This document shows, piece by piece, positions 2,373 to 45,069 of a stretch of 64,000 nucleotides of DNA. The stretch comes from Candidatus Stahliibacteriota bacterium. GTDB lineage: Bacteria; Hydrothermota; Tepidihabitantia; SM23-42. The stretch covers positions 55 through 64,054 of the forward strand of contig JAUWCU010000003.1 in NCBI GenBank assembly GCA_030609135.1, given 5' to 3'. The translations under genes were made by a program, and so were the position numbers. A model generated the notes under the pieces. The model did no database searches. It was not told the origin of the DNA and saw only the letters and a list, made by a program, of their open reading frames with translations. Numbering within the stretch: position 1 is the first letter of the stretch; every line of letters begins with the position of its first letter.

Positions 2373-2838
2373 ACTTACCTCCAATTATAAATATATTAAC
2401 AAAAAATATACTTAAGTCAAGACCCAATAATCAAACGACCGAGAATTAAAAGTAGGGCATTTAAGCCCAGTATATCTCGAAGTTTTGAAGATGTGAGGCT
2501 CAGAACCTCTGAACAGATTGTTTAATAGCTGTAGTTGTCCAATTCATTGGACTGCCCGATAAATCCCGCAATCCTATTTATAGAATCTTGATACGAAACG
2601 GGATAAATCCCGCAATTCTATTTATAAAATCTTAATACGAAGCGGGATAAATCATCTGTCTGCCTCAGGCTGAGGCGACTACAATTGATTGAATCATAAG
2701 TGATTGGAAGTCACGCTGGCGCTGTGATTGTTAAAAAGGGAGAGGGAAAAAGCCTGCTCTGAACCTTGTGCTGAATATCATTTCAGTATTGTTTCAGAGG
2801 TGAGGGATAAAGATGTGTTCAAGTTTCTGTTATTAGTA

Positions 2839-5451: not shown

Positions 5452-5645
5452 ATAGTTTAATTTGATAGTTCTCCATAGCTTGCTACAGAGTTTCTTCTGT
5501 CATTCCCTGGCTTGACCAGGGAATCCAGGAAAATAAGGAAATACAAAAGACTGGATTCCGCCTCAGGTGCGGAATGACGACATACATTGAGCAGTATTTG
5601 ATTAAACTATTTAATGTTCTCCGTAATATATTGAGGATTGAGCAT

Positions 5646-6902
5646 TTACACCAATTCTATCCCCTTCTGTTCCTTTCTGAAAAATGCAAATATTATTACT
5701 GTCGAAATCAAATAAAGTACGCTTGTCGATAAAAAGGGTATTGTGTAAGAAAAGCGCTCAATGAGAAACCCACCCACACTGGCACTAGCTCCCCACCCTG
5801 CGGTCCAGGCTATGACAAGTAAAGCATTGGTAAAAGCTTGTTCATCGTGTTTGACTTTTTCCATTGCAAAGTTGGTGAATAAAGGCTGGGCCATATTCAT
5901 TAGCGCCGCCCTAACAAGGAATGCTATAATAGCTAAGATAAAATTAGTTGTTAGCCCCAGAACTACTAAAAAGGGTATTGATACTAATTGTGAAACGACA
6001 ACGGTTCTTATCTTTCCAATTCTTTCTGCAATGACCGGCGCAATCAGCAAGCCTGTTATCATTAGTAATTGTTGGCCGCTATAGAGTATGCCGATGTAGC
6101 TGGTTCCGGTCTGGAATACGTTCTTAAAATAAAGATTTAGAAAAGGGATACTTAAACCTGCTCCAATGCCGACGACCAAGCCAGGCAAAAATAATTTTAG
6201 AATAAGTCGCCACGAATGAATTTTCATTTTCTCTACTTTGCCAACAGGTTTTTCTTTAATCATTGAATAGGGTAATAGTGCGATCAACACCAAACAGGCA
6301 AAAATATACAATGTGTATCTGTATGCAAGATAGGGTACAGTACCGGTTTGTTCAATAATACCTGGAAGAAAACCAGCTAAGAGACTACCGATGATACCGG
6401 CAACGAGCATGAGCGCGAACTGCATGCTGAACAGATAAGGTCTTTCTTTTTGGGTGCTATTGCGCATGAAAAATGGTGCGGAGGCAACCCTTGAGAAAAC
6501 CGCAGCTAAACCAGCCATAAACCCACCGGCGATAATCAAATGATATGTTGATACACTTACCTGGATTAGGTAGGAGAATGTTGCAATCGGTGTGGCAATT
6601 AAGAGGATACGTTTTATTGGAACCCTTCTAATCAATACTGAAGCAGGTAATGCCATTATAAGCGTACCCAGCGTTGTTGCAGTTATTATGTTGCCGATTC
6701 GACTTTCCAGAAAGCCCATTTCTTTAAGGTAGAGGTTGAAAAGCAACATAAAACCAGAAAACCCCATACCCATAAAGAATGTCCCGATAAGGAATAATCG
6801 GGCATTTATTGAAAACAAACCTAGGTTATTTAGGTAATTGGAAATACCCCTTACTTTTGCGGAGCTGGTTTTGTTCTTTGGTCGGAACTCTTGGCTCGTC
6901 AA
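5646..6902 (-). CDS. MFS transporter
   Basis: 418 aa with about 12 predicted hydrophobic helices and an MFS-like glycine/arginine-rich inter-helix loop pattern. Confidence 0.65.
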
Positions 6903-8222: not shown

Positions 8223-8440
8223 TGTAGTTGCTCGATTCATCGAGCATTGCCTGATAAATCAGGGGACTACATTATGCCTGATTCAGCGTGGGCTTGAGCG
8301 TGGAAAGTGTAGTTGCTCGATTTGCCCATACTTTGTAGTTGCCCAATTTATTGGGCTTATGGCCATGTTCATGTCCGATAAATCCCGCAATTCTATTTAT
8401 AGAATTATAATACGAAGCGGGATAAATCGGAGAACTACTC
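8223..8440. repeat. cluster of REP-like palindromic elements: three TGTAGTTG-hairpin units plus one GATAAATCCCGC...GCGGGATAAATC unit
   Basis: 8223-8271 reads TGTAGTTG[CTCGATTCATCGAG]CATTG[CCTGATAAATCAGG]GGACTACA. There are further GTAGTTG hairpins at 8308 and 8334, and an A-type element at 8376-8430. Related copies occur at 2530, 32213, 36515 and 36815. Confidence 0.7.
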
Positions 8441-10989: not shown

Positions 10990-11150
10990 ATCTATCCCCC
11001 TCTCTTTATCTCTCCCCCTTTGAAGGGGGAGAGAAAGGTGGGGGTTCGTTCGGAATTTACCGGACATTATTGTGATTCCTATGATTGAAAAATTGTCAAG
11101 CCCAGAAGGGCTTTCCCACAATATGTGGGAGCGGGCTGCCCGCGATTATC
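10990..11150. repeat. GC-rich hairpin element (family F: CTCCCCCTTTGAAGGGGGAG hairpin plus gcccagaagggctttcccaca / gggctgcccgcg module)
   Basis: A second, inverted copy lies at 25560-25760. The hairpins are related to those inserted in the phosphorylase gene at 23436-23579. Confidence 0.6.
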
Positions 11151-11748
11151 ATTCTTTAATAATTTCATATACAATGCTCGGGGTGAATCCTCGAGTCAGC
11201 AAGCGACGGACAAGTTTCTGGCGTTCTTTAGGATTTTTTATATCTAAATTGCCCGCTTTTTTTTCGATGTAATTTCTTATCAGTTCTCCCTCATCCCTTG
11301 TGTCAAGCAAATTCGTAATGATTTCTCTATCAACACCCCTTCTAGTCAGTTCGCTTAAGATGAAACGATTCCCCTTTGGCTTCAAGTTTGTATAGTCATT
11401 TACAAAAGCCCTGGCAAACCGTTTATCGTCAAGTGTTTTATCAGCGATCAATTCGTCAATCACTTCATCTGCGAGTGAATTGTCAAAACCAATACGCATC
11501 AGTCTATCCCTGAGTTCCTCAACTGATCTTTCACGATAGTGGAGTATTTTGAATGCTCGCTCCATGATTTTGGCTTTATCTGCATGGTGCACAATTTCAT
11601 CAATTTCCCGGTCGGTAATTTCAACACCTTCATACAAACCATACTGGAGAACTATTTCCTTTGGTAATCCAAATCTGAATTCACCGTCGATAAATATGGA
11701 ACAACGTTTCCTATTTTTTTTCTGAGGTTCGATCTTGCTTATCTTCAT
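11149..11748 (-). CDS. recX: recombination regulator RecX
   Basis: 199 aa located immediately downstream of recA, with a RecX-like three-helical-repeat composition. Confidence 0.7.
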
Positions 11749-12754
11749 GCTTGGATCTCTGTGCAGGGTTCATCTCTTCGCGTATTTTCTGTTCGATTTT
11801 CTGGGCGATGTCGCTGTCTGTTTTTAATAACTCGATAACTGCATCACGTCCTTGGCCGATTCGTTCATCGCCGTAAGAATACCAGGAACCTGCTTTCTGG
11901 ATAATTTTCAGATCCACGCCGATATCGACTAATTCTCCATATTTGGATATTCCTTCTCCGTAAATAATATCGAACTCCACTTTCTTAAAAGGTGGTGCGA
12001 GTTTGTTCTTTACCACTCGAACCCTTGTTCTTGAACCGATCATTGTATCGCCTTTCTTTATCGTGGCGATCCGTCTAATATCACATCGGACTGACGAATG
12101 AAACTTTAAAGCCATGCCTCCAGGTGTTGTTTCGGGTGAACCATATATAACCCCGATTTTGTAGCGTATTTGGTTAATGAAAACTGCGCAGGTATTTGAT
12201 TTGCTGATGACGCCAGTCAGTTTTCTCAGTGCTTGAGACATGAGACGGGCAATCAAGCCGACTTGTAGTTCACCCATTTCTCCGGCAATCTCCGCCTTCG
12301 GTACTAAGGCGGCAACTGAATCAAGCACGACAATATCAACACCGCCAGAACGGGTTAGGATTTCGGTAATTTCTAAAGCCTGTTCAGCAGTATCTGGTTG
12401 GGAAATGAGCAGGTCAGTTAGATTGATCCCAAGATTTTGAGCATAAGTTGGGTCAAAAGCGTGTTCGACATCAATGAAGATCGCGGTGCCACCAGCTTTT
12501 TGAGCTTGAGCAATAGCCTCTAAGGCAAGCGTGGTCTTACCACCTGCTTCTGGGCCAAATATCTCTACAACCCGACCACGTGGGAATCCACCAACACCCA
12601 GGGCAAAATCAAGACCGATTGAGCCAGTTGGAATCACTTCGACATCTACTCTTGCTCCTTTGTCGCCAAGGCGCATAATGGATCCTTTACCGAATTGTTT
12701 TTCAATTTGACTGATTGCTACATTCAAGACTTTTTGTTTATCGTCTTTTGCCAT
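11711..12754 (-). CDS. recA: recombinase RecA
   Basis: 347 aa containing the Walker A motif GPEAGGKTT and the conserved RecA core ([22 protein letters not shown]...). Confidence 0.92.
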
Positions 12755-16181: not shown

Positions 16182-16445
16182 TCAAGATTGTAGTGGTCGG
16201 ATTCATCCGACATTAATAAAAATGTGCAATAAATTGCACCGCTACAATTATTAATTGTACAACCATCTGAATATTGACATCTGTACTTTTTAATTTGTTC
16301 AAAGATAAACCCCGTAGGACATTTGCTGTCCAACGGGGTAAAGCCTTCTCCACGGTTCAAATTAGATACAAAAGCTTTTTGCTTTAGCAATAGCTGTTCT
16401 ATTTTATACATATCACCGCGGAGAAGACTTTACCATTATCTCTAT

Positions 16446-29472: not shown

Positions 29473-29638
29473 GCCCAGATTATATGGAAAAATCCCTCAA
29501 TGTAAAGTATATTCATAAATCTGACATGTTGTAGTCCTGACAGGCATTTGCAGAGTAAACTCTGCCACTACAGAATGTGCGAAATATCACTGTCCCGCTA
29601 TGCGGGATCTTCGATTTTCCTATAGTGTATGCTAATAT

Positions 29639-29690
29639 GATAAATCCCGCAATTCAATTTATAGAATTACAATACGAAGCGGGATAAATA
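29639..29690. repeat. A-type palindromic element GATAAATCCCGC-[AATTCAATTTATAGAATT]-ACGAAGCGGGATAAAT
   Basis: Copies at 2558-2653 (a tandem pair), 8376-8430, 32245-32294 and 36748-36797 (reverse). Flanked here by a TGTAGTCC...CCACTACA unit (29531-29575) and a cruciform GGAGTGCA...TGCACTCC unit (29703-29750). Confidence 0.7.
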
Positions 29691-29811
29691 GGGCGGAGAG
29701 AGTAGATGGAGTGCAACGGCTTGCCGTTGCATGCAGTAGCAAGCTACTGCACTCCGTAGCAAAATCAAGGGATAAGGGATAAAGATGTGTCCAAGGTTTC
29801 TTAATTAAAAG

Positions 29812-29846: not shown

Positions 29847-29922
29847 GGCGCCATCGTCTAGCTTGGTTTAGGACGTCGCCCTCTCAAGGCGAAGATCACG
29901 GGTTCAAATCCCGTTGGCGCTA
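29847..29922 (+). tRNA. tRNA-Glu (anticodon CTC)
   Basis: Manually folded cloverleaf: acceptor GGCGCCA / TGGCGCT, D-arm GTCT...GGAC, anticodon stem TCGCC / GGCGA with loop CTCTCAA (anticodon CUC), T-arm ACGGG-TTCAAAT-CCCGT. CCA is not encoded, and a T-run follows. Confidence 0.85.
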
Positions 29923-32137: not shown

Positions 32138-32405
32138 TCGAACAATAATGATTTTATACTTCGAGCGACCATGAGTTTTACGAATGAGAGTCGAGAATCG
32201 AGCGTTAATAATTGTAGTTGTCCAATTTATTGGACAAAACCTGATAAATCCCGCAATCCTATTCATAACATCATAACACGAAGCGGGATAAATCACCTGT
32301 CTGCGTGCGATGCACAGGCAGGCCTGTCTACCTCAGGCAGAGGCGACTCGAACAATAATGATTTTATACTTCGAGCGACCATGAGCTTTACGAATGAGAG
32401 TCGAT
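32138..32405. mobile_element. composite TGTAGT-type MITE (about 134 bp, C+A+B modules) flanked by 59-bp near-perfect direct repeats
   Basis: The direct repeats are 32138-32196 and 32347-32405 (tcgaacaataatgattttatacttcgagcgaccatgag(t/c)tttacgaatgagagtcga). The core at 32213-32346 starts TGTAGTTGTCCAATTTATTGGAC and ends GGCAGAGGCGAC. The 78-aa track ORF MSFTNESR...MSFTNESR is an artefact of this duplication. Confidence 0.6.
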
Positions 32406-32578
32406 AAGTACCATTCTGTCATTGCCTGGCTTGACCAGGCAATCCAGAATACCTATTCCGGGATCATTCGGCTAAACCGTATGATGACGACTAAAAATTT
32501 TTTGGATTTGATCATTGGAATTTGTTTAAGATTTAGAATTTTGATTTTGGGATTTACCGAACGAAGTGAGGTGTCATT

Positions 32579-32890: not shown

Positions 32891-34026
32891 ATTCAAGCGC
32901 CAAGAACCAAGACCCAAGACCCAAAAATAACATTCAAAACTTCTCATCTTCAGAATTTCCTAACTTCGATATTTGTATTATCGGCGGCGGTCCTGCAGGT
33001 CTTGAAGCCGGGATCATTGCACGTAGGCTCGGAGCCAAGGTTATGATAATCGATGATAACCCAGTGCTCGGTGGACAATTAATCAAGCAGACGCACAAGT
33101 TTTTCGGCTCTAAAGCGCATTATTGCGGTGTAAGAGGCGTTGATATAGCAGGTATTCTCAGCAAAGAGATTAAGGATTTAGGTTTTGACGTTCTCCACAA
33201 TGCAACTGTAGTTGGGTATTATGATGATGATATCATCGGTGTGCTGCAACATGATAAATTGTTGTCAGTAAAGGCAAGGGCGTACATTTTTGCAACCGGG
33301 GCTAGTGAAAACATGCTCGCCTTTGACAACGCAGATTTACCTGGTGTTTATGGCGCTGGTGCTGTACAGACCATGATGAATGTCTATGGTGTTGTGCCCG
33401 GGAAAAGAGCGGTGGTAATCGGGTCTGGTAATATCGGCTTGATTGTTCCTTATCAGTTGCTGCAGGCTGGTGTTGAGGTGGCGGCAATTATAGAAATCAT
33501 GGATAAAGTCGGTGGTTATTATGTTCACGCGGCAAAGCTAAAAAGAGCCGGTGTACCGATTATCCTCAAACACACAATTATCCAAGCCCAGGGTAGAGAT
33601 TGTGTTGAAGCTGCACTTATCAGCAAGGTCGACGGAAAATATAAGTGCCTGCCCGGTACAGAAAAAACAATTGAGTGCGACATGATTCTGATTGCGATCG
33701 GTCTTTCGCCACTCTGCGAATTGCTCTACCAGGCAGGATGTCGTATAGATTATATCCCTGAGCTTGGCGGTCATGTACCCCTTCACAATGAAGACATGAT
33801 GACTACCCAGAAAAACATCTTTGTGTGCGGTGATCTGGCGTGTATTGAGGAAGCGTCTACGGCTATGCTCGAAGGCAAGATTGCCGGAGCCAAGGCGCAT
33901 GAAGTTATATACGGCGAGACCAAGCAGGGTAAAGAGATTGCCCAACAGGCAAAAAGAGAACTCGCGGTTATTCGGTCTTCTCCATTTGAACAAAGGATTA
34001 CTTACGGTCTGAATAAGTTGAAGTAG
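32887..34026 (+). CDS. FAD/NAD(P)-binding pyridine-nucleotide-disulfide-family oxidoreductase (HcnB / opine-oxidase-A-like)
   Basis: Two Rossmann dinucleotide motifs (IIGGGPAGLEAG and VIGSGNIGL). Start set at ATG 32887, which overlaps the upstream stop; the track ORF from 32824 is in the same frame. Confidence 0.65.
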   Translation: MNSSAKNQDPRPKNNIQNFSSSEFPNFDICIIGGGPAGLEAGIIARRLGAKVMIIDDNPVLGGQLIKQTHKFFGSKAHYCGVRGVDIAGILSKEIKDLGFDVLHNATVVGYYDDDIIGVLQHDKLLSVKARAYIFATGASENMLAFDNADLPGVYGAGAVQTMMNVYGVVPGKRAVVIGSGNIGLIVPYQLLQAGVEVAAIIEIMDKVGGYYVHAAKLKRAGVPIILKHTIIQAQGRDCVEAALISKVDGKYKCLPGTEKTIECDMILIAIGLSPLCELLYQAGCRIDYIPELGGHVPLHNEDMMTTQKNIFVCGDLACIEEASTAMLEGKIAGAKAHEVIYGETKQGKEIAQQAKRELAVIRSSPFEQRITYGLNKLK

Positions 34027-34220
34027 CTGCAAATACGTCTTCAACAATTCAACAGGACTATTGTCATTACGAGTGTAGTCGAGAACCCTCAACATGATTA
34101 TTGTTCCTCTCACCTTGTTCGAGACAGGCGAGCGAAGTTGAGAACTTCCGCAATATGGGTGATGGCCCTAGATAAAAATGTCATTGCGAAGGCGTAGCCT
34201 GAAGCAATCTCACCTCCTTT

Positions 34221-34324
34221 TGTCAATCAAGCGCGTGAGGGCATAGTATTTGTAGTGGTCGAGTTTACTCGACAAACATCCCTGCACGCTACGGTATTTG
34301 TGCAGAGCAAGCTCTGCCACTACA
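34221..34324. repeat. D-type REP element: TGTAGTGG-[TCGAGTTTACTCGA]-CAAACATCCC-[TGCACGCTACGGTATTTGTGCA]-GAGCAAGCTCTGCCACTACA with a conserved 30-bp upstream arm
   Basis: Near-identical copies at 36388-36478 and 36961-37062. A partial inverted composite lies at 39048-39180. The perfect 8-bp termini are TGTAGTGG / CCACTACA. Confidence 0.75.
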
Positions 34325-34473
34325 TATGTTGGGGTAGGTCTTTACACGAGCGGGACTCTGTTTCATGTCATTGCGAATCCGCCGCGTCATATAGCGGACA
34401 AAGTCCCGCAATGCAAGGATCCTCGATTTTCATTTATTAGAAATATATAGTACGGAAAATCGGGATAGTCTCA

Positions 34474-34501
34474 TTGACAGCCCAATTTTTCTCTATATAA
34501 T
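34474..34501 (+). promoter_or_regulatory. sigma70-type promoter TTGACA-16-TATAAT, leaderless (ATG 8 nt after the -10)
   Basis: TTGACA at 34474-34479, TATAAT at 34496-34501, ATG at 34510. Confidence 0.5.
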
Positions 34502-34509
34502 ACCATGTT

Positions 34510-35526
34510 ATGAATGCAATAGAAGTCATAAAATCAGTTGCTGGTCTTGGCGGTCTCAGTTTGATTTTTGGTATTGTTCTGGCTGTTGCATTTAAGAAAC
34601 TCGCGGTCAAAGTTAGTGAACAAGAGCAGAAACTGAGAGATGCTTTGCCAGGTACAAATTGCGGTGCCTGTGGTTTCCCGGGTTGTGATGCCTATGCCCA
34701 TGCCTTAGCTGAAAATACTGGTGAGGTAGCGTCAAACCTCTGCACCGTCGGTGGTGCTGAAACAATTAGGAAAATCGGCGAAATCCTGGGCATTGAGGTT
34801 GAGGCAGCAGAACCAATGATGTGTGTATTACGATGCCGGGGCGGTAGGGAAAACGCAGTTGAAAAGTTTGAGTATATAGGGCCAGGTGATTGCCGAAGCA
34901 ATTACATCCTCTTGGGCGGTAATAAAGCATGTGAGTGGGGGTGTTTGGGCGGTGGTCACTGTGAGACTGTTTGTCCATTTGACGCCATTACAATGGGGCC
35001 GAATCGTCTACCTATTATTGATCCACACAAATGCACGGCATGTGGTATTTGCGTAAAAGAGTGTCCGCGTCAGGTACTTGAGTTACTACCCCGCGTTCAA
35101 TTGATATACTTGGCCTGTAAAACTCTGGATAAAGGTAAAGTGGTCAAAAATGTCTGCAAGGTTGGTTGTATTGGTTGTACCCTCTGTGTTAAGTCCTGTC
35201 CTTATGAAGGAGCAATACAAATGGATGGTAATCTTCCCAAGATGGACTATACCAAGTGTATATCATGTGGTATTTGTTATAATAAATGCCCTACCAAATC
35301 ATTTGTTGACCGTGCTCCAGCGCGACCTTATGCGATTATTTCTTCAAAGTGCGATGGCTGTGGAGAATGCGTAAAAGTATGTTTGTTCAAGGCAATTGAG
35401 GGAAAACCAGGAAAACGCCACACCGTGATAAAAGATAAGTGCATAGGCTGTGGCAGGTGTTTTGAAGTTTGTCCGATAAAAGTTATTACCATGGCTGGCG
35501 CCTTGGGATATGTAGAAACAGCATAG
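34510..35526 (+). CDS. membrane-anchored RnfB-like polyferredoxin (RnfB N-terminal Fe-S domain plus at least four 4Fe-4S ferredoxin motifs)
   Basis: N-terminal TM helix followed by PGTNCGACGFPGCDAYA (the RnfB signature). Multiple CxxCxxCxxxCP motifs follow (CTACGICVKECP, CIGCTLCVKSCP, CISCGICYNKCP, CDGCGECVKVC, CIGCGRCFEVCP). Confidence 0.65.
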   Translation: MNAIEVIKSVAGLGGLSLIFGIVLAVAFKKLAVKVSEQEQKLRDALPGTNCGACGFPGCDAYAHALAENTGEVASNLCTVGGAETIRKIGEILGIEVEAAEPMMCVLRCRGGRENAVEKFEYIGPGDCRSNYILLGGNKACEWGCLGGGHCETVCPFDAITMGPNRLPIIDPHKCTACGICVKECPRQVLELLPRVQLIYLACKTLDKGKVVKNVCKVGCIGCTLCVKSCPYEGAIQMDGNLPKMDYTKCISCGICYNKCPTKSFVDRAPARPYAIISSKCDGCGECVKVCLFKAIEGKPGKRHTVIKDKCIGCGRCFEVCPIKVITMAGALGYVETA

Positions 35527-35557
35527 TGTTAGAACATCAGGCTATCAGAGGATCAGG

Positions 35558-36373
35558 ATGAAGTTATATTATGCCAACTCCACATTGGACAATGCTCAAG
35601 TTATCATCCTTGGTCTTGGTTATGATAGAACTTCATCATTTATCCCTGGTTCGCGATTTGGACCCGAGTTTATAAGATTATGTTCTAATAATATTGAGGA
35701 ATATTCACCATATCAAGATAAGAGTCTTTGTAATGTGAACATATGTGATTGCGGGGAGGTAGAGTTTGACACAAAAGATTGGGTCTTAAAAGCGCGTACC
35801 GCAGTCAAAGAATACATAGATGAACAGAAATATCTCATTGCACTCGGCGGAGAGCATACGATTACCTTACCGATTACTCAAGTCCTAAAAGAGAAATATG
35901 AAAATTTTTCACTGGTTCATTTTGATGCTCACTGTGATCTACGCGATGAGTATCTTGAGCAGAAAATCTGCCACGCTACAGTGATGCGCCGGGTGAGCGA
36001 TATTATTGGGCTTGATAATCTATACCAGTTTGGTATTCGTTCAGGAACCCAGGAGGAATTTAGTTTTGGCAAGAACCTGTACAAATTCGATCTTTTTAAA
36101 CCTTTATCTTCAGTAATAAACAATATCAAAGAACCTATTTATCTATCAATAGATGTGGATGTTTTGGACCCGGGAGTATTACCGGCAGTTTCCACACCTG
36201 AACCAGGCGGGGTTTCATATCAGGAGTTTATTAAAGCACTGCTATTATTTAAAGACAAGAAAATACTTGGAGCTGATATTGTTGAATACAACCCTTTCGC
36301 TGCCTCACCATATGCGTCAGGCTCCACTGTCGCTGAGATACTGCGGGAGCTCATTCTGGTCGGAACTCCCTGA
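35558..36373 (+). CDS. speB: agmatinase (arginase/ureohydrolase family)
   Basis: GGEHTIT, DAHCDL and SIDVDVLDP Mn-binding signatures of the arginase family, and a length typical of SpeB. Confidence 0.75.
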   Translation: MKLYYANSTLDNAQVIILGLGYDRTSSFIPGSRFGPEFIRLCSNNIEEYSPYQDKSLCNVNICDCGEVEFDTKDWVLKARTAVKEYIDEQKYLIALGGEHTITLPITQVLKEKYENFSLVHFDAHCDLRDEYLEQKICHATVMRRVSDIIGLDNLYQFGIRSGTQEEFSFGKNLYKFDLFKPLSSVINNIKEPIYLSIDVDVLDPGVLPAVSTPEPGGVSYQEFIKALLLFKDKKILGADIVEYNPFAASPYASGSTVAEILRELILVGTP

Positions 36374-36387
36374 TCCAGGTAAGTTTA

Positions 36388-37064
36388 TAGTATTCGTAGT
36401 GGTCGAGTTCACTCGACAAACATCCTTGCACGCCACGGTATTTGTGCAGAGCAAGCTCTGCCACTACATGTGTTCTTGATTCGTTCCAGTATCCAACCCA
36501 AACCCTTTTTCCATACTCACAGTTATAGTCGCTCGATTCATCGAGCCAATCTAATGGAGCGTCTGATAAATCAGACAACTACAAAGATTAATCAAATTGT
36601 TACATCATATCATTGTAGTTGCTCGATTCATCGAGCCAATTTACGCGGAAAGCCCCTCAGACTAGCATAATTACTGTTTCTCTCACCTTGTTCGAGACAG
36701 GCGAGCGAAGTCGAGAACCACCCTTTGCATTTTTCGCCGCCCAATTCATCCCGCTTCGTATTGTAATTCTATAAATAGAATTGCGGGATTTATCGGGCCA
36801 ATTTACGCGGAAGTATGTAGTCGCTCGATTCATCGAGCCAATCTAATGGAGCGTCTGATAAATCAGACAACTACAGCGCAGCGTATCTTCAGTGAAACGT
36901 GTCTCCAGCGTAGCGTGTCTTCAACAGAGTGTGTTCTCCATTTCTCCCATACTCCTTTTGTCGATCAAACGCGTGAGGGCATAGTATTTGTAGTGGTCGA
37001 GTTTACTCGACAAACATCCCTGCACGCTACGGTATTTGTGCAGAGCAAGCTCTGCCACTACATG
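36388..37064. repeat. BIME-like array of at least seven REP-type units in a 790-bp intergenic region
   Basis: Order: D (36388-36478), TATAGTCG-type C (36515-36600), C (36610-36650), the ctctcaccttgttcgagacaggcgagcgaagtcgagaacc unit (36676-36720, also at 34085-34140), A reversed (36748-36797), C (36815-36885), D (36961-37062). Four track ORFs here are spurious. Confidence 0.75.
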
Positions 37065-37120
37065 TGTTCGGAATTCCTAATTACCAAATTACTCGGTTAC
37101 ACAACTATAAAAGGCTCGTA

Positions 37121-37148
37121 TTGACACCGCCCATACCGTGCTTATAAT
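37121..37148 (+). promoter_or_regulatory. sigma70-type promoter TTGACA-16-TATAAT with a 17-nt leader containing AAGGAGG
   Basis: TTGACA at 37121-37126, TATAAT at 37143-37148, ATG at 37166. Confidence 0.5.
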
Positions 37149-37165
37149 TATCGTAAGGAGGAACA

Positions 37166-39016
37166 ATGACACTAATAATATTGTTTTTAGCAGGTCAATC
37201 ATTTTTTAACATTGAGAACAAGCAAGTATTCTATCCTGAACCAGTTAGAGCTGAATCAACGCACTCGTATGATGTACTGCACTATTTCATAGATCTGAAC
37301 CTTCCAATGACTTCCCGCTATCTTGAAGGCGCGGTTACGATTTCAGCCCGGAGTAATCAGGATAATTTGACGATTCTTGACCTCCACCTTTTAGGCTTGA
37401 GTGTTGATTCTTTAAAAGTCGATGGAGTTACTGCATCTTACTCCCACAATTACGAGACTTTATATGTGAATCTGCCTCAAGTCTATAATCAGGGTGATTC
37501 CTTTGATATAATGGTGGGATATAGTGGCACGGCTTCGGGCAGCATGGGTTATCTCAGGTATACCAGCACCCACCCCATTTCATATACCCTGGGTTGTCCA
37601 TTCTGCACAAGAAGATGGCTACCCTGTTATGACCGATTATGGGACAAGGCTGATTATGGTGTCGAGTTTTTTATAACTGTACCGGATTCCTATTATGTCT
37701 GCGCTACCGGAGAATTAATTGACGTAGATACTACGGCAGGTTATGCAACATTCAATTGGAAACATAATTATCCTATCGCTCCTTATCTTATTCACTTTGC
37801 TTCAAGCATCTTTACCACATATTCAGATTGGTATTATCCAGCGGCAGGAGATAGCATTGAGATTAAAAATCATTTCTGGCCTGAGGATATGATTTATGCC
37901 CCGACCGCGTTTCAATATACCACAGACATGATGTCTTATTATGATTCGCTTTATGGCGCTTATCCTTTTGAACGCTATGGTATGGTAATACTTCAGCCAT
38001 TCTATTATGCGGGCATGGAACATCAAACCATGAGCTCGATATATCGTACAGGTTTTGTTGGTAATGATTATTACCTGATGGCGCATGAGATGTCGCATAT
38101 GTGGTGGGGTGATATGGTAACGTGTTTTGGTTGGCAGAATGTCTGGCTGAACGAGGGTTTTGCAACATATTCTGATGCCCTGTACCGTGAACACCATGTT
38201 AATCATCAGCTTTTCATTAATACCATGATCTCCCGCCGCAATGCATACTTCAGCTCAGAAGCGTCGTTTCCACATCCGATCTATGACCCGCCGGCAAATC
38301 ATATTTTTAATTGGGGTCATTCTTATTGCAAGGGTTCATGGCTCTGTCATATGATCAGATATTTGTGCGGTGATGATAATACCTGGTTAAACCTGCTTGC
38401 CACATACCGTGATTCATTCGCATATCAAGATGCCTCAAGCGATGATTTGAACCGGATAATGGACCAGGTACTCGGAGGAAATTATGATTGGTTCTTTAAT
38501 GAATGGGTGTATGATCTTTACTATCCAATCTATGATATCGTGTGGGTAAAAATCTATGAATCGCCGAACTGGCGTTTGATTTTGGACATCACTCAAACTC
38601 AACCCATGGGCCCTTCGGTTTTTCATATGCCATTGCCAATCGGCGTAGATTTCTCAAGCGGTGATACAATATTAACGCTCGACATAAATCAATCCCCACA
38701 ACACTTTGAGTATGTATTGCTACAAGAGCCAATGGACATTATCGTTGATCCAGAAACCTGGGTAATTCAAAAAAATACTGTGACCCAGGGTATTGCAGAA
38801 TATGTTGCTCCCGGTATATTTATTGAGAACATCAACACGATCGGTCGGGCAATCGAGCTCAAGCTTACTCAACCCGGTTTAATTCGAATTTTTGATATTA
38901 CAGGCAGAAAGGTCTATGAAACACATGCTCAGGAGGTTAAATATCAACCTTCAAGCGCGGGTATCTACCACGTAATAATCGGTGACAAGAAACAGCGAGT
39001 AGTCGTTGTAAAATAA
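37166..39016 (+). CDS. M1-family zinc aminopeptidase with a C-terminal T9SS (Por) sorting domain
   Basis: HEMSHMWWG...NEGFATY is the gluzincin HExxH-x18-E motif. The C-terminus LIRIFDITGRKVYE...AGIYHVIIGDKKQRVVVVK matches the T9SS CTD pattern. Confidence 0.75.
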   Translation: MTLIILFLAGQSFFNIENKQVFYPEPVRAESTHSYDVLHYFIDLNLPMTSRYLEGAVTISARSNQDNLTILDLHLLGLSVDSLKVDGVTASYSHNYETLYVNLPQVYNQGDSFDIMVGYSGTASGSMGYLRYTSTHPISYTLGCPFCTRRWLPCYDRLWDKADYGVEFFITVPDSYYVCATGELIDVDTTAGYATFNWKHNYPIAPYLIHFASSIFTTYSDWYYPAAGDSIEIKNHFWPEDMIYAPTAFQYTTDMMSYYDSLYGAYPFERYGMVILQPFYYAGMEHQTMSSIYRTGFVGNDYYLMAHEMSHMWWGDMVTCFGWQNVWLNEGFATYSDALYREHHVNHQLFINTMISRRNAYFSSEASFPHPIYDPPANHIFNWGHSYCKGSWLCHMIRYLCGDDNTWLNLLATYRDSFAYQDASSDDLNRIMDQVLGGNYDWFFNEWVYDLYYPIYDIVWVKIYESPNWRLILDITQTQPMGPSVFHMPLPIGVDFSSGDTILTLDINQSPQHFEYVLLQEPMDIIVDPETWVIQKNTVTQGIAEYVAPGIFIENINTIGRAIELKLTQPGLIRIFDITGRKVYETHAQEVKYQPSSAGIYHVIIGDKKQRVVVVK

Positions 39017-39047
39017 GTCTGCTGTCATTGCGTAAGTATTTAATAAT

Positions 39048-39180
39048 TGTAGTGGTCGAGTTTACTCGACAAATATCCTTCACGCTGCTTTTGCCCAACT
39101 GTAGTTGCCTCTGCCTGAGGCAGACAGGCCTGCCTGTGCGTCGCACGCAGACAGGTGATTTATCAGGCTGCATCAATCCG
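39048..39180. repeat. inverted composite REP element (partial D unit, B hairpin and the A-junction GTGATTTATCAGG)
   Basis: Reverse complement of the 32225-32345 architecture. The GCCTCTGCCTGAGGCAGACAGG hairpin equals B-type units at 2656-2683 and 32296-32346. Confidence 0.6.
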
Positions 39181-39382
39181 CCATCTTATGTCATTGTGAA
39201 GGCGAAGTCCGAAGCAATCTCCAAAAAAGAGATCGCTTCGTTCACACTCGCGATGACAGGAAAAAAATGTTACTGCGAGCGGAATCGAGAACCTTCAGCA
39301 GTAGTATAATATTGTTCTCTCCGTTGCTCCGATACTCCCTTTCACCGTTTCTCCCATTCTCCTGTTCTTGCCCGTTATCACG

Positions 39383-39410
39383 TTGACATATAGCCCTTTC
39401 TCGCTATAAT
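39383..39410 (+). promoter_or_regulatory. sigma70-type promoter TTGACA-16-TATAAT, 5 nt upstream of a GTG start
   Basis: TTGACA at 39383-39388, TATAAT at 39405-39410. Confidence 0.45.
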
Positions 39411-39415
39411 ATATA

Positions 39416-40618
39416 GTGTCTCAGCAACTAAATATCTTGGTCACCGGCGCCGCCGGCTTTATCGGCTGGAAAGTCTGCGAACTCCTCCTCACCAAACCAG
39501 AGCTAATTCCGAGTGACATAATGACCAATGACTCAATGACTGTTTCTGTTATTGGCATCGACAACCTCAACGACTACTACGACATCCGCCTCAAACAATG
39601 GCGTCTTGAGCAATTAAAGAAGTTAAATAGTCATTGCCAGGAACCTTCCTCTTCCGTCATTGCGAGGAATCCCGAGTTTGTCGAGGGAGACGAAGCAATC
39701 TCACCCAATCGATTCATGTTTCACAAACTCGACATCGAAGACTACGCATCTCTTAAGAAATTGTTCCAAAAATACTCTGTTCATTCAAAAAGTACCGCAC
39801 AAAGTGCTCATAACCGCCCCGACACTTTGAATAAAAGTGTGGGGGCCAAAACCGCATCTTTGATGCCAGAACCGCCGTTTACGGCAGTGATCAATCTCGC
39901 TGCTCGTGCTGGTGTTCGCTACAGTTTGGAAAACCCGTTTGTATATTATACGACAAATGTCATCGGTACTTTAAACCTTCTCGAACTGTGTCGTGAATTT
40001 GGTGTGAAAAAATTCATCCTTGCATCTACTTCATCACTATATGCCGGACAGAAAATGCCTTTTAAAGAGGAGTTACCGGTGAATGAACCCATATCGCCTT
40101 ACGCAGCATCAAAAAAGAGTGCTGAAGTTACCTGTTATACATATCACAATTTGTATGATATCGATGTGACGATTTTAAGGTATTTCACTGTGTATGGACC
40201 AGCATCCAGACCTGATATGAGTCCCTTGCGTTTCATATCCTGGGTATATCAGGAAAAACCTGTTATCATATATGGAGATGGTACCCAGTCACGAGATTTT
40301 ACCTATGTCGATGACATCGCCCGCGGCACAATAATGGCATTAAAACCTTTGGGTTTTGATATAATAAACCTTGGCTGTGATCAACCCCATGAATTGCTCG
40401 AATTTCTTCACATGATTGAGGAGAAGCTGGGCAAGAAAGCAAAGATTGTCAATGAACCCATGCATCCTGCAGACATGAAAGCAACCTGGGCAGATATCAC
40501 TAAAGCTAAGAAAATACTCGGCTGGCAGCCTTCAGTAAGATTGGAACAGGGGCTCGATACTGCGGTTGTTTGGTTCACAAAAAACCGTACCTGGCTTGCT
40601 GATATCAAGCTCTCTTGA
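39416..40618 (+). CDS. NAD-dependent nucleotide-sugar epimerase (UDP-glucuronate 4-epimerase / CapI-like SDR) with two lineage-specific insertions, one derived from a repeat element
   Basis: N-terminal ILVTGAAGFIG and the catalytic YAASK motif. Compared with the CapI-like core there are extra segments SSVIARNPEFVEGDEAIS and VHSKSTAQSAHNRPDTLNKSVGAKTASLMPEPP. The start is uncertain (GTG at 39416, or the TTG three codons downstream). Confidence 0.7.
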   Translation: MSQQLNILVTGAAGFIGWKVCELLLTKPELIPSDIMTNDSMTVSVIGIDNLNDYYDIRLKQWRLEQLKKLNSHCQEPSSSVIARNPEFVEGDEAISPNRFMFHKLDIEDYASLKKLFQKYSVHSKSTAQSAHNRPDTLNKSVGAKTASLMPEPPFTAVINLAARAGVRYSLENPFVYYTTNVIGTLNLLELCREFGVKKFILASTSSLYAGQKMPFKEELPVNEPISPYAASKKSAEVTCYTYHNLYDIDVTILRYFTVYGPASRPDMSPLRFISWVYQEKPVIIYGDGTQSRDFTYVDDIARGTIMALKPLGFDIINLGCDQPHELLEFLHMIEEKLGKKAKIVNEPMHPADMKATWADITKAKKILGWQPSVRLEQGLDTAVVWFTKNRTWLADIKLS

Positions 40619-41678: not shown

Positions 41679-42578
41679 ATGCTGGCAACTAATCTTACCG
41701 TTCATATAGATTCTTCCTACATCCCTTGGCGAGTTCAAGCTGGAGAAGAACCACAGTATTTGTGGCGCTGGGCAATGGCATACGGTGAGTCATACTGGCG
41801 GAATTTTTATGCCTGCACCACCAAGGTGCAATGCCTGCGGAATTATGCAGACACAACTTATGACGACACCTATTTTGATGGTGTCTTTGTTGACAATTTG
41901 CTCCACTTCGTTGATGGTTTGAGTTATGGTTACAACATTTATCCTGCACAATATCGTCCTTATCCGGATACCAATAACTTTGCACAATGGGATGCAAACT
42001 TACGTGCGGCAGTAGATACTTTTGTGCAAACAGTAAGCGCTGAATACCATAACCCTAACACACCTTCTGGTCATCCTTGCGAGGTTTTAGCAATAGGCAA
42101 TACAAACCGGGCACATTTGGTGGATGAATATGCTACTTTATGGAAAAATTTTCTGCAATATCTGGATGGCGCAGTGGAAGAATCTGATTTTGCGCGTGCT
42201 GATATAGAATTTGGTCGCTGGCAGAGAATGATTCATGAAATGGCGATTGCCGAATCATTGGGCAAGATATGCCTCATTCATGTGCCCTGTTCCACAGAAT
42301 TTTATAGTCCTAATGACCCTTTGAGTGTCTACTATTATGACTCAACTCAGATGATTTATGGTTTTGCAAGTTACTTGATGGCTTACGATTCTGTGAGTCA
42401 TTTCGCTTTAAATAAGAATCTTTCTCCCAATTATGCCCATATCTACTGGGCACCGATTTTTTCAATTTGTTCAATTTCTGAATTGGTGAATAGGCGGTTT
42501 CGGAATAGATATTTCGGCTTAAATGTTTCTGGAGATTTTCCCATAAAACAATTATACATATTTTTTGCGAGAACTTAA
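41679..42578 (+). pseudogene. N-terminally truncated paralog of the secreted GH114/TM1410-like hydrolase at 45127 (no signal peptide; starts mid-domain)
   Basis: Aligns to residues about 155-450 of the 45127 protein. It contains a 112-bp tract (41763-41874) that is 100% identical to 45647-45758 while the flanks are diverged. It ends at a TAA that is followed immediately by G9. Confidence 0.45.
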
Positions 42579-42687: not shown

Positions 42688-42758
42688 TATAATATGAATT
42701 TTGATACCACGAAGTTTTGGGGAAAATTAAATTATTACTAAAAAGACAAGGAGGAAAT

Positions 42759-43733
42759 ATGAAAAGAGTGGTCATTGGGATATGTGCAATAGTGATAGGG
42801 TTTATGCCCTTGTCCATCTATGGTTCTGAAATTGCAACTGTAACTTTGGAAACCTGGATGAATGCTTCCCAGGGTTTTGAACCAAACCTTGGTCAGATTG
42901 GCGATTTTGAAGGGAATGTGGTTAATAATATCTTGTGCGCTTTCAAGGGTAATGGACTTGGTATATTCATTAATGAAAAAGGGGTAAGTTATGTTATTTA
43001 TCAAGCGGAAAAAATCTTAAGAGATGAGTCCCAGAGAATTGATTTAAGAGAACCTGAAAAAAATCTTATCCACTATGCAAGGATTGATGTGGAGCTTGTG
43101 AATTCCAATTTTGAAAAGTCAAAAATCGTTTATGAAGATGAGCTACCCGGATATGCGCATTATTATTTGCCACAATGTCCTGATGGTATTCTTTATGTGA
43201 AAAGTTTCAGAAAGGTGCGGATTAAAGAGATATATCCGGGCGTTGACTGGATATGGAAATATGAAGATGGACGGTTGCATCATGAATTTGAGGTCAAACC
43301 TGCGTCTGATGTTTCAAAGATAAAGATGAAGGTTAAATGGGCTGATGTTGAGATAAGCGAAAATGGTAGAAAACTTATATATTCTACGCCACTTGGTAAG
43401 ATAAAAGATGGAAATATACTTGGTTATGAAAATCCGAAATCCAAAATCCGAAATCCGAGACCGATTGATATTTCTTATATAAAAAATGAAGATGGGATAA
43501 TTTCCTTTGAAATAAAGAATTATTCCGGTAAAAATCCTCTAATTATTGACCCACCCCTTGCACTATTATGGGGGACATATTACGGAGGCAATGATCCTGA
43601 TCGTGGCTATTCAATTACAACCGATAATTCAGGTAATATTTTTGTAACTGGGACCACTTATTCAACAGAATTTTCCCACACAAGACCCCGGTGGTGGTGC
43701 TTATTATCAAGGTACAAAAGCAGGATATTTTGA
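42759..43733 (+). CDS. SBBP-repeat beta-propeller surface protein, N-terminal part (signal peptide, unique 270-aa domain and the first repeat); reading frame breaks at the T4 run at 43677-43680
   Basis: Start at the internal Met [22 protein letters not shown], preceded by GGAGG. After TTYSTEF the frame yields SHTRPRWWC..., whereas the +1 frame continues the repeat consensus [14 protein letters not shown]. Deleting one T restores a single 770-aa ORF. Confidence 0.6.
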
Positions 43734-44800
43734 TGTATTTGTTTTAAAGTTTACAAATACAGGGGTTCGGCTTTGGGCGACATATTACGGAGGAAATGAC
43801 AGAGATGGGGGCGCTTCAATTATAACTGACAATTCAGGTAATGTTTTTGTAGGTGGAACCACCTATTCAACAGATTTTGCCACACAGGACCCTGGCGGTG
43901 GTGCTTATTATCAAGGAACATTTGCAGGTGTTGGTGATGCATTTATTTTGAAGTTTACAAATGTTGGTATTCGCCTCTGGGCAACATATTACGGCGGAAA
44001 TGATAGTGATATGGTGTGTTCGATTACCACTGATAATTCAGGTAATGTTTTTATAACTGGGTGGACTCTTTCAACAGATTTTCCCATACAGGACCCTGGC
44101 GGTGGTGCCTATTATCAGGGAGCAAATGCAGGTTATAGAGATGCATTTATTTTGAAGTTTACAAATACGGGTGTTCGTCAATGGGCAACGTATTACGGAG
44201 GAAATGCTGGTGATTGGTGCAATTCAATTACAGCGGATAGTTCAGGTAATGTTTTTATAGCCGGATACACCTATTCAACAAATTTCCCCACATATGACCC
44301 CGGGGGAGGTGCTTATTATCAGGAAACACTTGGAGGTGTTCATGATGCATTTATTTTGAAGTTTACAAATACCGGTGTTCGGCAAAGGGCGACATATTAC
44401 GGCGGAAATAATGAGGATATGTGTAATTCAGTTACAACTGATGCTTCAGGTAATATTTTTGTGACTGGATACACTTTTTCACCAGATTTTCCCACATATG
44501 ACCCCGGGGGAGGTGCTTATTATCAGGGAGCACTTGCAGGCGGATATGATGCATTTGTCTTGAAGTTTACAAATAGCGGTATTCGCCAATGGGCAACGTA
44601 TTACGGAGGAAATGATGTGGATTGTGGCTTTTCAATTAAAACCGATAATTCAGGTAATGTTTTTGTAACTGGACTAACTGTTTCAACAAATTTCCCAACA
44701 CAGGACCCTGGCGGTGGTGCTTATTATCAGGGGACACATGCAGGTGTTGGTGATGTATTTCTTTTGAAGTTTGAAACTTCACTGGGAATTGTAGAGGAAA
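43560..44800 (+). repeat. intragenic tandem DNA repeats (144-bp period, about 8 copies, high nucleotide identity) encoding the SBBP blades
   Basis: Recurrent strings include gcaacatattacggcggaaatga, ggtgcttattatcagg and gcatttattttgaagtttacaaata. Confidence 0.7.
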
Positions 44801-45069
44801 ATACTAAAAAGAATGAGCCTTCGGTTCTAATTATTTCTTCTATCTTTATCAACAGAATACGAATAGACCTTTCATTATCTTCTAAAAAACCCATGGCTCT
44901 TATCCTTTATAATTTATTGGGGCAGAAAATCTTTTCAAGGTCTTATCCTGAAACTAAGTCTCTTATTATAAGAGGCAGAGAGATTGAAGAATTGAGTAAA
45001 GGAATATATTTCTTATCTGTCTATTCAGGAAAAAAAGAGATTGGCAGGGTTAAGCTGATAAAGAGATAA
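43948..45069 (+). CDS. SBBP-repeat beta-propeller protein, C-terminal part (about 7 x 48-aa repeats plus a T9SS C-terminal sorting domain); the frame is open upstream to about 43680
   Basis: Repeats follow [68 protein letters not shown]. The C-terminus ...[23 protein letters not shown] is a typical T9SS CTD. Confidence 0.65.

Follow-up and report, generated by a model that had tools for sequence, protein, structure and literature searches.

GTAG-tagged REP hairpins of a probably RAYT-associated family in an uncultured WOR-3 bacterium

The 64,000-nt stretch of contig JAUWCU010000003.1 analysed here (positions 55 to 64,054, assembly GCA_030609135.1; hereafter the window), from a Candidatus Stahliibacteriota bacterium, carries 22 copies of one 22–23 nt hairpin unit when at most one stem mismatch is allowed. 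These repeats are very probably GTAG-tagged repetitive extragenic palindromes (REPs) of a family linked to RAYTs (tyrosine transposases that accompany REPs), organised mostly as inverted REP doublets (REPINs, or 'HH dimers') and as mosaics resembling bacterial interspersed mosaic elements (BIMEs). An initial annotation had described them as nested elements akin both to REPs mobilised by RAYTs and to miniature inverted-repeat transposable elements (MITEs). The first half of that description is supported by the sequence definition of the unit, the inverted doublets and the mosaic clusters, whereas the MITE half is not sustained, the doublets being devoid of target-site duplications.

The hairpin unit and its inverted doublets

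All units follow a single plan in which the tag T-GTAG is succeeded by two bases (TG, TT, TC or CG), a 6-bp stem with an initial G, a 4-nt loop and the complementary stem with a final C. Three loop types, TTTA, TTCA and CTTG, are found across the window. Positions G2, T3, A4 and G5 are invariant in the 22 units and, with the 6-bp stem and the 4-nt loop, correspond to the sequence definition of a REP. Nine distinct stem sequences, each fully complementary, are represented, and the informative point is that stems so variable are combined with one common tag, spacer and loop.

The abundance of the unit confirms that the repeat family is real. The octamer TGTAGTKG is found 22 times in the window against 2.9 expected, a count reached in none of 100 shuffles. 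A hairpin follows directly at 17 of these 22 sites; four of the other five lie within open reading frames (ORFs) and resemble chance matches, while a truncated unit accounts for the fifth (8308). When GTAG followed by a hairpin was scanned for independently, 29 sites were returned; shuffled sequence gave 6.5 ± 2.9 and never more than 13. Of the strictly canonical form, with GTAG, 2 nt, a perfect 6-bp stem and a 4-nt loop, the window holds 20 units, or 3.1 per 10 kb, compared with 0.02 per 10 kb in control DNA (one in 446 kb of unrelated viral contigs and none in 39 kb of cyanobacterial loci).

The units are strictly extragenic, 22 of 22 being intergenic, and of the 13 intergenic gaps that measure at least 230 bp, 10 contain one or more, so that the earlier statement that nearly every long intergenic region is colonised is roughly right. 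The occupied gaps are divergent (promoter-containing) or separate tandem genes, and the three convergent gaps contain no unit. No T-run follows the hairpins, and an Rfam search of the window recovered tRNA-Glu only.

Most units stand as inverted pairs with the GTAG tags outermost, only two (36614 and 39048) being clearly solo. The TGTAGT...ACTACA termini reported initially are therefore present, but they are the GTAG tags of two inverted REPs rather than transposon-like inverted repeats. The 11 doublets, of 42–154 nt, have the inverted REPs, short spacer and single predicted fold of REPINs; in the fold predicted for single-stranded DNA the two tags pair with each other and each doublet forms two hairpins (z = −2.5 to −5.8). 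The sequences on either side of these doublets show no consistent target-site duplication, in agreement with transposition of the Y1 type. The elements of the window are listed below, where REP(+) and REP(−) denote the orientation of a unit, a stem and its loop are separated by a slash, e, f, b and g designate unit types, and A denotes a distinct 36-nt element considered further on.

2530–2683 (+): composite doublet (fold z = −4.4) made of REP(+) 2530–2552 (stem GTCCAA, loop TTCA), two tandem A cores of 36 nt each (2566–2601 and 2610–2645) with GATAAATC at 2558, 2602 and 2646, and a variant REP(−) 2661–2683 (TGTAGTCGCCTCAGCCTGAGGC, terminal GACTACA).
8223–8271 (+): minimal 49-nt REPIN-like doublet, the simplest pair, with no insert (fold z = −5.6); REP(+) 8223–8245 (GCTCGA/TTCA) and REP(−) 8249–8271 (CCTGA/TTTA), the loop of the latter being an unoccupied GATAAATC site; in the predicted fold TGTAGT pairs with ACTAC(A) beside two hairpins.
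8308–8323 (+): truncated REP unit (TGTAGTTGCTCGATTT).
8334–8439 (+): doublet in which an A unit interrupts the right-hand REP(−) (fold z = −5.8); REP(+) 8334–8356, then host stem TCC, GATAAATC, A core 8385–8420, GATAAATC and GGA-GAACTAC.
16189–16246 (+): 58-nt doublet; REP(+) 16189–16211 (GTCGGA/TTCA) and REP(−) 16224–16246 (GTGCAA/TTTA, tag GTAGCG).
21219–21291 (+): 73-nt doublet; imperfect REP(+) 21219–21241 and REP(−) 21269–21291 (GCACGA/TTCA).
29531–29572 (+): short doublet; degenerate left unit (GTAGTCCTGACAGG) and REP(−) 29550–29572 (GCAGAG/TTTA).
29639–29690 (+): A unit with no recognisable REP around it; GATAAATC, core 29647–29682, GATAAATA.
32213–32346 (+): composite of REP(+) 32213–32235, A core 32251–32286 between GATAAATC at 32243 and 32287, two longer 'B' hairpins (CCTGTCTGCGTGCGATGCACAGGCAGG and CCTGTCTACCTCAGGCAGAGG) and a degenerate right-hand tag, GCGACTC.
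34251–34324 (+): 74-nt REPIN e/f; REP(+) GTAGTGGTCGAGTTTACTCGAC and REP(−) GTAGTGGCAGAGCTTGCTCTGC.
36395–36468 (+): second copy of REPIN e/f, the left unit with tag CGTAG and loop TTCA.
36524–36583 (+): 60-nt REPIN b/g; the left unit carries the tag ATAG (TATAGTCGCTCGATTCATCGAGC) and is paired with REP(−) 36561–36583 (GTCTGA/TTTA).
36614–36652 (+): solo REP(+) (GCTCGA/TTCA) with a conserved tail, CAATTTACGCGGAAAG; unit and tail are also present in the related locus L070.
36743–36794 (−): A unit, reversed; core 36751–36786, within a hairpin GCCC...GGGC and followed by the REP tail CAATTTACGCGGAAG.
36816–36875 (+): second copy of REPIN b/g, of which 58 nt match 36526–36583 with 100% identity.
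36989–37062 (+): third copy of REPIN e/f, with 97% identity to 34214–34333 across 120 nt.
39048–39070 (+): solo REP(+) of type e.
39100–39170 (−): inverted copy of the right half of the 32213–32346 composite (variant REP and B hairpins), with an unoccupied GATTTATC at 39157.
62688–62761 (+): 74-nt doublet; REP(+) 62688–62710 (one stem mismatch) and REP(−) 62739–62761 (GCACGA/TTCA).

The composition that the initial annotation assigned to 2530–2683 (5' REP, two A units and a GACTACA end) is recovered here. The copy placed at 16188–16215 is in reality the doublet 16189–16246, the doublets at 21219–21291 and 62688–62761 had been missed, and the right end of the 32213–32346 composite bears no ACTACA. 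The two missed doublets are paralogues with 83% identity over 101 nt. At the 32213–32346 composite a 60-bp direct repeat, 97% identical (32138–32197 and 32348–32407), forms the brackets and, with the missing right-hand ACTACA, suggests a 210-bp duplication or recombination event rather than a simple insertion.

The e/f pair (74 nt) occurs three times (34251, 36395 and 36989) and the b/g pair (60 nt) twice (36524 and 36816). The gap 36374–37165 is a mosaic of eight canonical units and other short repeats. A 53-nt repeat (TTCTCTCACCTTGTTCGAGACAGGCGAGCGAAGTYGAGAAC, 92% identical), found at 34093–34145 and 36666–36718, travels with the REP clusters and has partial copies near 39265 and, on the reverse strand, near 32347.

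RAYT genes beside identical units and spread of the family

A metagenome scan with unit e returned 71 stretches, among which L121 carries a 146-aa Y1 gene. This gene lies between two copies of a three-REP cluster (5577–5655 and 6133–6213) whose units include GTAGTGGTCGAGTTTACTCGAC and GTAGTGGCAGAGCTTGCTCTGC, base-for-base identical to the 22-mers of the window REPIN at 34251–34324. Homologues of the L121 protein with 61–65% identity are encoded in L129, L130 and L131 and are likewise bracketed by GTAGTGG-hairpin units. Thus, the REPtron arrangement, a RAYT gene flanked by REPs of the same family, which the initial annotation had proposed to look for, is found in all four contigs. In L130 (4774–7284) the RAYT gene is located between recA and recX in a recA-recX-...-alaS neighbourhood; the window has a similar neighbourhood at 11149–12754, but there recA and recX abut and no RAYT gene is present.

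The assignment of the L121 protein to the RAYTs draws on profile scores and on motifs. The protein matches Pfam Y1_Tnp with 48 bits, and its best NCBIfam model is 'REP-associated tyrosine transposase' (REP_Tyr_transpos) with 76.8 bits, below the cut-off of 80, while the IS200 model scores 38.6 bits. The JGI annotation labels these proteins RayT. A profile built from the 26 sequences of the clade retrieved E. coli TnpA-REP (4ER8) from the PDB with E = 1.3e-9, followed by ISDra2 TnpA with 4e-5; a PDB search with the single RAYT sequence gave no match, the clade being only distantly related to E. coli RayT, so that a profile is needed to detect the likeness. Residues H66, W106, Q107, E112, H113, R116, Y127 and N131 are invariant in the clade alignment, and H68 and P132 are conserved in at least 90% of the sequences. 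The protein displays the motifs of RAYTs, namely HuH, a single Tyr in Y---NP (the catalytic Tyr lying within REYIQNNP) and WQ..[ED]H..R. In the profile alignment to 4ER8, W106, Q107, E112, H113 and R116 correspond to E. coli W94, Q95, E100, H101 and R104, and the WQ..EH..R region has been tied to GTAG recognition in E. coli (PMC6006769). Membership of the IS200/IS605 (or PATE) group is not indicated, since the protein has Y---NP and scores higher on the RAYT model; no tnpB-like ORF was noted beside the L121 Y1 gene.

The units are not unique to the window. In addition to the 71 metagenome stretches, a genome scan with unit f matched at least 120 stretches in at least 35 metagenome-assembled genomes (MAGs) of 36–60% G+C, several MAGs having many matches each; two RAYT genes are found among these stretches. 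The exact 22-mer GTAGTGGCA(R)AGCTTGCT(Y)TGC (L132–L251) is present in at least 35 MAGs bearing the labels of at least 12 phyla. The labels among the matches listed include Elusimicrobia, Bacillota, Nitrospinae, Planctomycetes/Brocadiales, Desantisbacteria, WOR-3 and Zixibacteria, as well as Ratteibacteria, Stahlbacteria, Parcubacteria, Ignavibacteria, Deltaproteobacteria and Thermotogae. The spread in G+C content argues for truly different hosts, although MAG labels and binning can be wrong. A 98-nt REPIN had no match in the plasmid collection, and unit e had none in viral contigs.

The clusters turn over rapidly. The locus L070 of a close relative is 90–95% identical to window positions 33174–40530, yet it has about 30 bp in place of the 483-bp REP-bearing spacer of the window (the one containing 34251–34324). 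In the next spacer L070 has one REPIN e/f and no b/g, against two of each in the window, so that clusters are missing or rearranged between the two genomes. Related metagenome contigs also contain head-to-tail arrays of single REPs (period 24–28 nt) and of whole REPINs (period 51–52 nt), at L058 7588–7662, L085 5330–5500, L088 1741–1840, L108 4932–5043, L069 127–343 and L098 1395–1485; the window has no such arrays. Two short-read contigs of the same species, L252 (SRR14923480) and L253 (SRR14876856), stop tens to about 200 bp from genes bordering REP clusters, which indicates that the clusters break assemblies.

The 36-nt A unit and other repeats of the window

The A unit, which the initial annotation had described as nested between the termini of composite copies, is a separate element. 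Its core, CCGCAATYCTATTTATARAATYTTRATACGAARCGG, is 36 nt long and is bounded on each side by the 8-nt GATAAATC. Six A units are present in the window at five separate loci, every core being exactly 36 nt with the same boundaries. In several copies (8377–8428 and 36743–36794) the loop region of the REP hairpin consists of GATAAATC, and the orientation of the A unit is opposite to that of the host REP wherever the latter is clear. The plain GATTTATC at 39157, in the inverted paralogue of the 32213–32346 composite, represents an empty site for A insertion (39152–39168 compared with 32241–32300). No A unit was found in 1.27 Mb of related loci, L070 included. A scan of 1.3 Mb of related loci for A-like loop insertions gave an output swamped by tandem REP arrays, and the 51 matches of the 15-mer GATAAATCCCGCAAT in viral contigs were all due to chance, none extending into the A unit.

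Taken as sequence patterns, these features suggest that the A unit is a lineage-restricted micro-insertion with an 8-nt duplication, outside the REP plan, which usually lands in a REP hairpin loop. As a best guess, loop-targeted integration by the same kind of single-strand hairpin (HUH) chemistry would be the most likely route.

Recombination between loops is a fair rival, although on the whole a rather unlikely one. The A unit would then have arisen not by insertion but when REP hairpins sharing the GATTTATC loop underwent unequal recombination or gene conversion, one partner being a REP-like hairpin, GCGGGA-TTTA-TCCCGC (GCGGGATTTATCCCGC), seen at the tandem A junction. That junction (2596–2615) folds as the hairpin CGGGATAAATCCCG, built on the loop plan of the family, and the 8-nt repeat is itself the REP loop region. 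Tandem duplication is also documented at the same locus: L001, from another sample of the same species (99–100% identical), has at 2190–2235, relative to window 2549–2592, an extra 42-nt tandem duplication covering the 3' REP stem together with the initial portion of the A unit. Recombination accounts less readily for six cores of exactly 36 nt with identical boundaries at five separate loci, for the matching empty site and for the A copy at 29639, which lies outside any REP.

A bolder joint reading, regarded as distinctly unlikely, is that the A unit is a new micro-mobile parasite of REPs and that, at the same time, the RAYT/REP pair has passed horizontally between a dozen bacterial phyla of sediment and groundwater with an identical 22-nt REP retained. 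Integration of the A unit would then take place in a single orientation, at the single-stranded GATTTATC loop of a REP hairpin; cleavage of the HUH type, and an exchange of strands with the identical loop of a circularised A form (GCGGGA-TTTA-TCCCGC), would generate the 8-nt duplication.

Several further repeats occupy the window. A second, unrelated hairpin family consists of GTCATTGCG, 15–35 variable nt and GCAATCTC, some copies falling in called ORFs; its sites are 24922(−), 24949(−), 25137, 34180, 34367, 39024, 39190 and 39656, with further ones at L070 5058 and L084 5903, and its left arms at 39024 and 39190 bracket a REP block. A 64-nt repeat, 84% identical (2451–2514 and 24991–25054), starts with AGTAGGGCATTTAAGCCC, ends with GAAGATGTGAGGCTCAGAACCTCTGAAC and has no Rfam match. 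A complex nested palindrome (GGAGTGCAACGGCTTGCCGTTGCA TGCAGTAGCAAGCTACTGCACTCC) at 29700–29760, outside the REP family, lies just upstream of the only tRNA gene (tRNA-Glu, 29847–29922). Between 43569 and 44784 a 204-bp unit is repeated in five to six tandem copies, about 76–81% identical, within the ORFs 42717–43733 and 43948–45069, and is probably a repeated protein domain. A 147-nt repeat with 93% identity (41762–41908 and 45645–45791), in the ORFs 41679–42578 and 45127–47931, may reflect a domain common to the two or a tract of gene conversion.

Related systems, mobility and significance

The window family resembles the REP/REPIN-RAYT systems of E. coli and Pseudomonas (Nunvar 2010; PMC3116915; Ton-Hoang/Messing 2012, 4ER8) in its 5' GTAG at the foot of a hairpin, its extragenic position, its inverted doublets folding as one structure, the REPtron and the lack of target-site duplication. 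It differs from them in a shorter unit (22 nt), a fixed 2-nt spacer between tag and stem, a 4-nt TTYA or CTTG loop, the many stem variants within one genome and a host that is an uncultured WOR-3 bacterium. With the GTAG-tagged REP superfamily and its 'HH heterodimers', as described in the accessible part of Di Nocera et al. 2013 (PMC3733652), it shares the tag, stems of 6–9 bp, minimal loops, tags outermost in dimers and partners that differ in stem or loop, a TTTA-loop unit being paired here with a CTTG-loop unit. None of the 24 families presented there was matched to the window family, in a comparison made without family consensus sequences, and WOR-3, Elusimicrobia and Desantisbacteria are not among the phyla named in that part of the source.

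By its motifs, the RAYT clade resembles subclass 2.4 of TnpA-Y1 (Bertels group 4; Quentin et al. 2018, PMC6006769), NH[IFV]H, WQ and YIxNNP of the subclass corresponding to NHLH, WQ and YIQNNP of the clade. The subclass is similarly patchy across many phyla and is accompanied by 'double foot' REPs, in which one end has GT[AG]G and the opposite end the complementary sequence. In contrast, the clade proteins have about 145 aa against a median of 194, and no REP insertions within the gene were seen. Enterobacterial BIMEs are, like the 36374–37165 gap, mosaics of several REP types and other short conserved motifs, but the accessory motifs differ.

For the A unit, the nearest parallel is with the REP-loop-specific insertions IS1397 and ISKpn1 (cited in PMC3116915), where a foreign element is likewise placed precisely inside a REP palindrome. 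The A unit differs in being 36 nt long, non-coding and accompanied by an 8-nt duplication, and it is not an insertion sequence. Nested small dispersed repeats of Nostoc, tens of nucleotides long and lying within other repeats, were reportedly described by Elhai et al. in 2008; the window does not come from a cyanobacterium, and the REPs beside Nostoc RAYTs are unrelated.

A Nostoc-like cyanobacterial host, suggested by the 40% G+C and the many small repeats, was considered and rejected because the window has no HIP1 octamer (0 sites), lacks the Nostoc-type GTAGGRTGCGTTA REPs that flank the Nostocales RAYTs P0022 and P0061 (L004 and L006), and encodes a RecA nearest to WOR-3, with 80–83% identity to the best-named relatives, every one of which carries a candidate division WOR-3 or TA06 label. 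The repeats thus do not belong to cyanobacterial REP families or to the Nostoc small dispersed repeats. Cyanobacterial RAYT genes set within GTAGG(A/G)TGCGTTA-type REPs form classical REPtrons and served as a contrast set, with Gloeocapsa PCC 7428 (gene frameshifted), Nostoc sp. MAG and Nostoc sp. MS1 as hosts and REPs at L002 2870–2945 and 3590–3660, L004 4880–4925 and 5570–5605, and L006 4740–4830 and 5555–5590. RAYT queries against the plasmid collection returned, among cyanobacteria, Kovacikia and Gloeocapsa only.

By analogy with the E. coli and Pseudomonas systems (PMC3116915, PMC3733652, PMC6006769), the movement of these REPs would be catalysed by a RAYT on single-stranded DNA. A single-copy enzyme (TnpA-REP, Y1 HUH), encoded elsewhere in the genome now or formerly, would bind the hairpin at the replication fork, use its conserved WQ..EH..R motif to read the 5' GTAG tag, and cleave and rejoin the strand, so that doublets would be copied or relocated with no target-site duplication. 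Slippage and unequal recombination among the copies may in turn produce the tandem and mosaic clusters.

Several observations weigh against a RAYT-driven origin of the window repeats. As the initial annotation had stated, the window has no RAYT gene, a Y1 profile hidden Markov model run over the six reading frames returning nothing at E ≤ 10, and the loci of close relatives (L070, L072 and L084) yielded no RAYT either. The RAYT-bearing contigs come from other lineages, the RecA of L130 being only 64% identical to that of the window, and among more distant RAYT homologues L223 has one flanking unit and L237 none. The stem-pairing statistic is partly circular because units were chosen for pairing. 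Several window copies lie within local duplications, and extended flanks are common to the three e/f REPINs, which lie within 3 kb, so that part of the copy number does not come from transposition. No clean pair of filled and empty sites was obtained for any REPIN.

A slim chance is accorded to an alternative, namely that the hairpins are now immobile structural motifs selected by the host, such as RNA 3'-end stabilisers, attenuators or sites for proteins or gyrase, whose copies arose by selection and local duplication, the link to RAYT being historical or the RAYT having a housekeeping role. Conservation by structure with compensatory stem changes, the copies that clearly derive from segmental duplication and the missing RAYT in the window and its near relatives fit such a view, and roles of this kind are reported for E. 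coli REPs (background in PMC3733652). However, the presence of units in divergent and tandem gaps, with none in the three convergent gaps, speaks against a terminator or 3'-end role, as do hairpins lacking a T-run. Cluster content also changes sharply between genomes 90–95% identical, and independent selection explains poorly the identical 22-mers in MAGs of at least 12 phylum labels and 36–60% G+C. A structural role is, moreover, compatible with mobility.

Scarcely credible is a classical MITE origin, in which doublets derived from insertion sequences by deletion are moved in trans by a DDE transposase through terminal inverted repeats: although the doublets are short, non-coding and intergenic with inverted termini of 6–8 nt, they lack a consistent target-site duplication, single units and head-to-tail arrays not expected of a terminal-repeat-dependent element are common in relatives, tag and structure rather than sequence are conserved (nine stems in the window), and the sole transposase found adjoining the units is a Y1/RAYT enzyme, in four of four close clade members.

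The accessible literature yielded no mention of this particular REP family, of its range of hosts among uncultured phyla or of the A unit, and the exact unit sequences retrieved no relevant paper. The kind of system is already well known, and the finding is given moderate weight, the A unit and the cross-phylum identity of the REPs being most worth following. Work on REP/REPIN-RAYT systems has been confined almost entirely to Proteobacteria and a few cyanobacteria, while the same architecture is found here in uncultured lineages that include WOR-3, Elusimicrobia, Desantisbacteria, Brocadiales and Nitrospinae, among others. The 22-nt REP sequence stays identical while the associated RAYTs have diverged to about 47–65% identity. 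A pair as compact as a 146-aa enzyme and a 22-nt substrate is suited to tests of how RAYTs recognise tag, spacer, stem and loop, and of whether REPtrons move between phyla. Knowledge of the REP family helps the finishing of MAGs, since its clusters break short-read assemblies, and the A unit would provide a naturally occurring example of insertion targeted to a hairpin loop.

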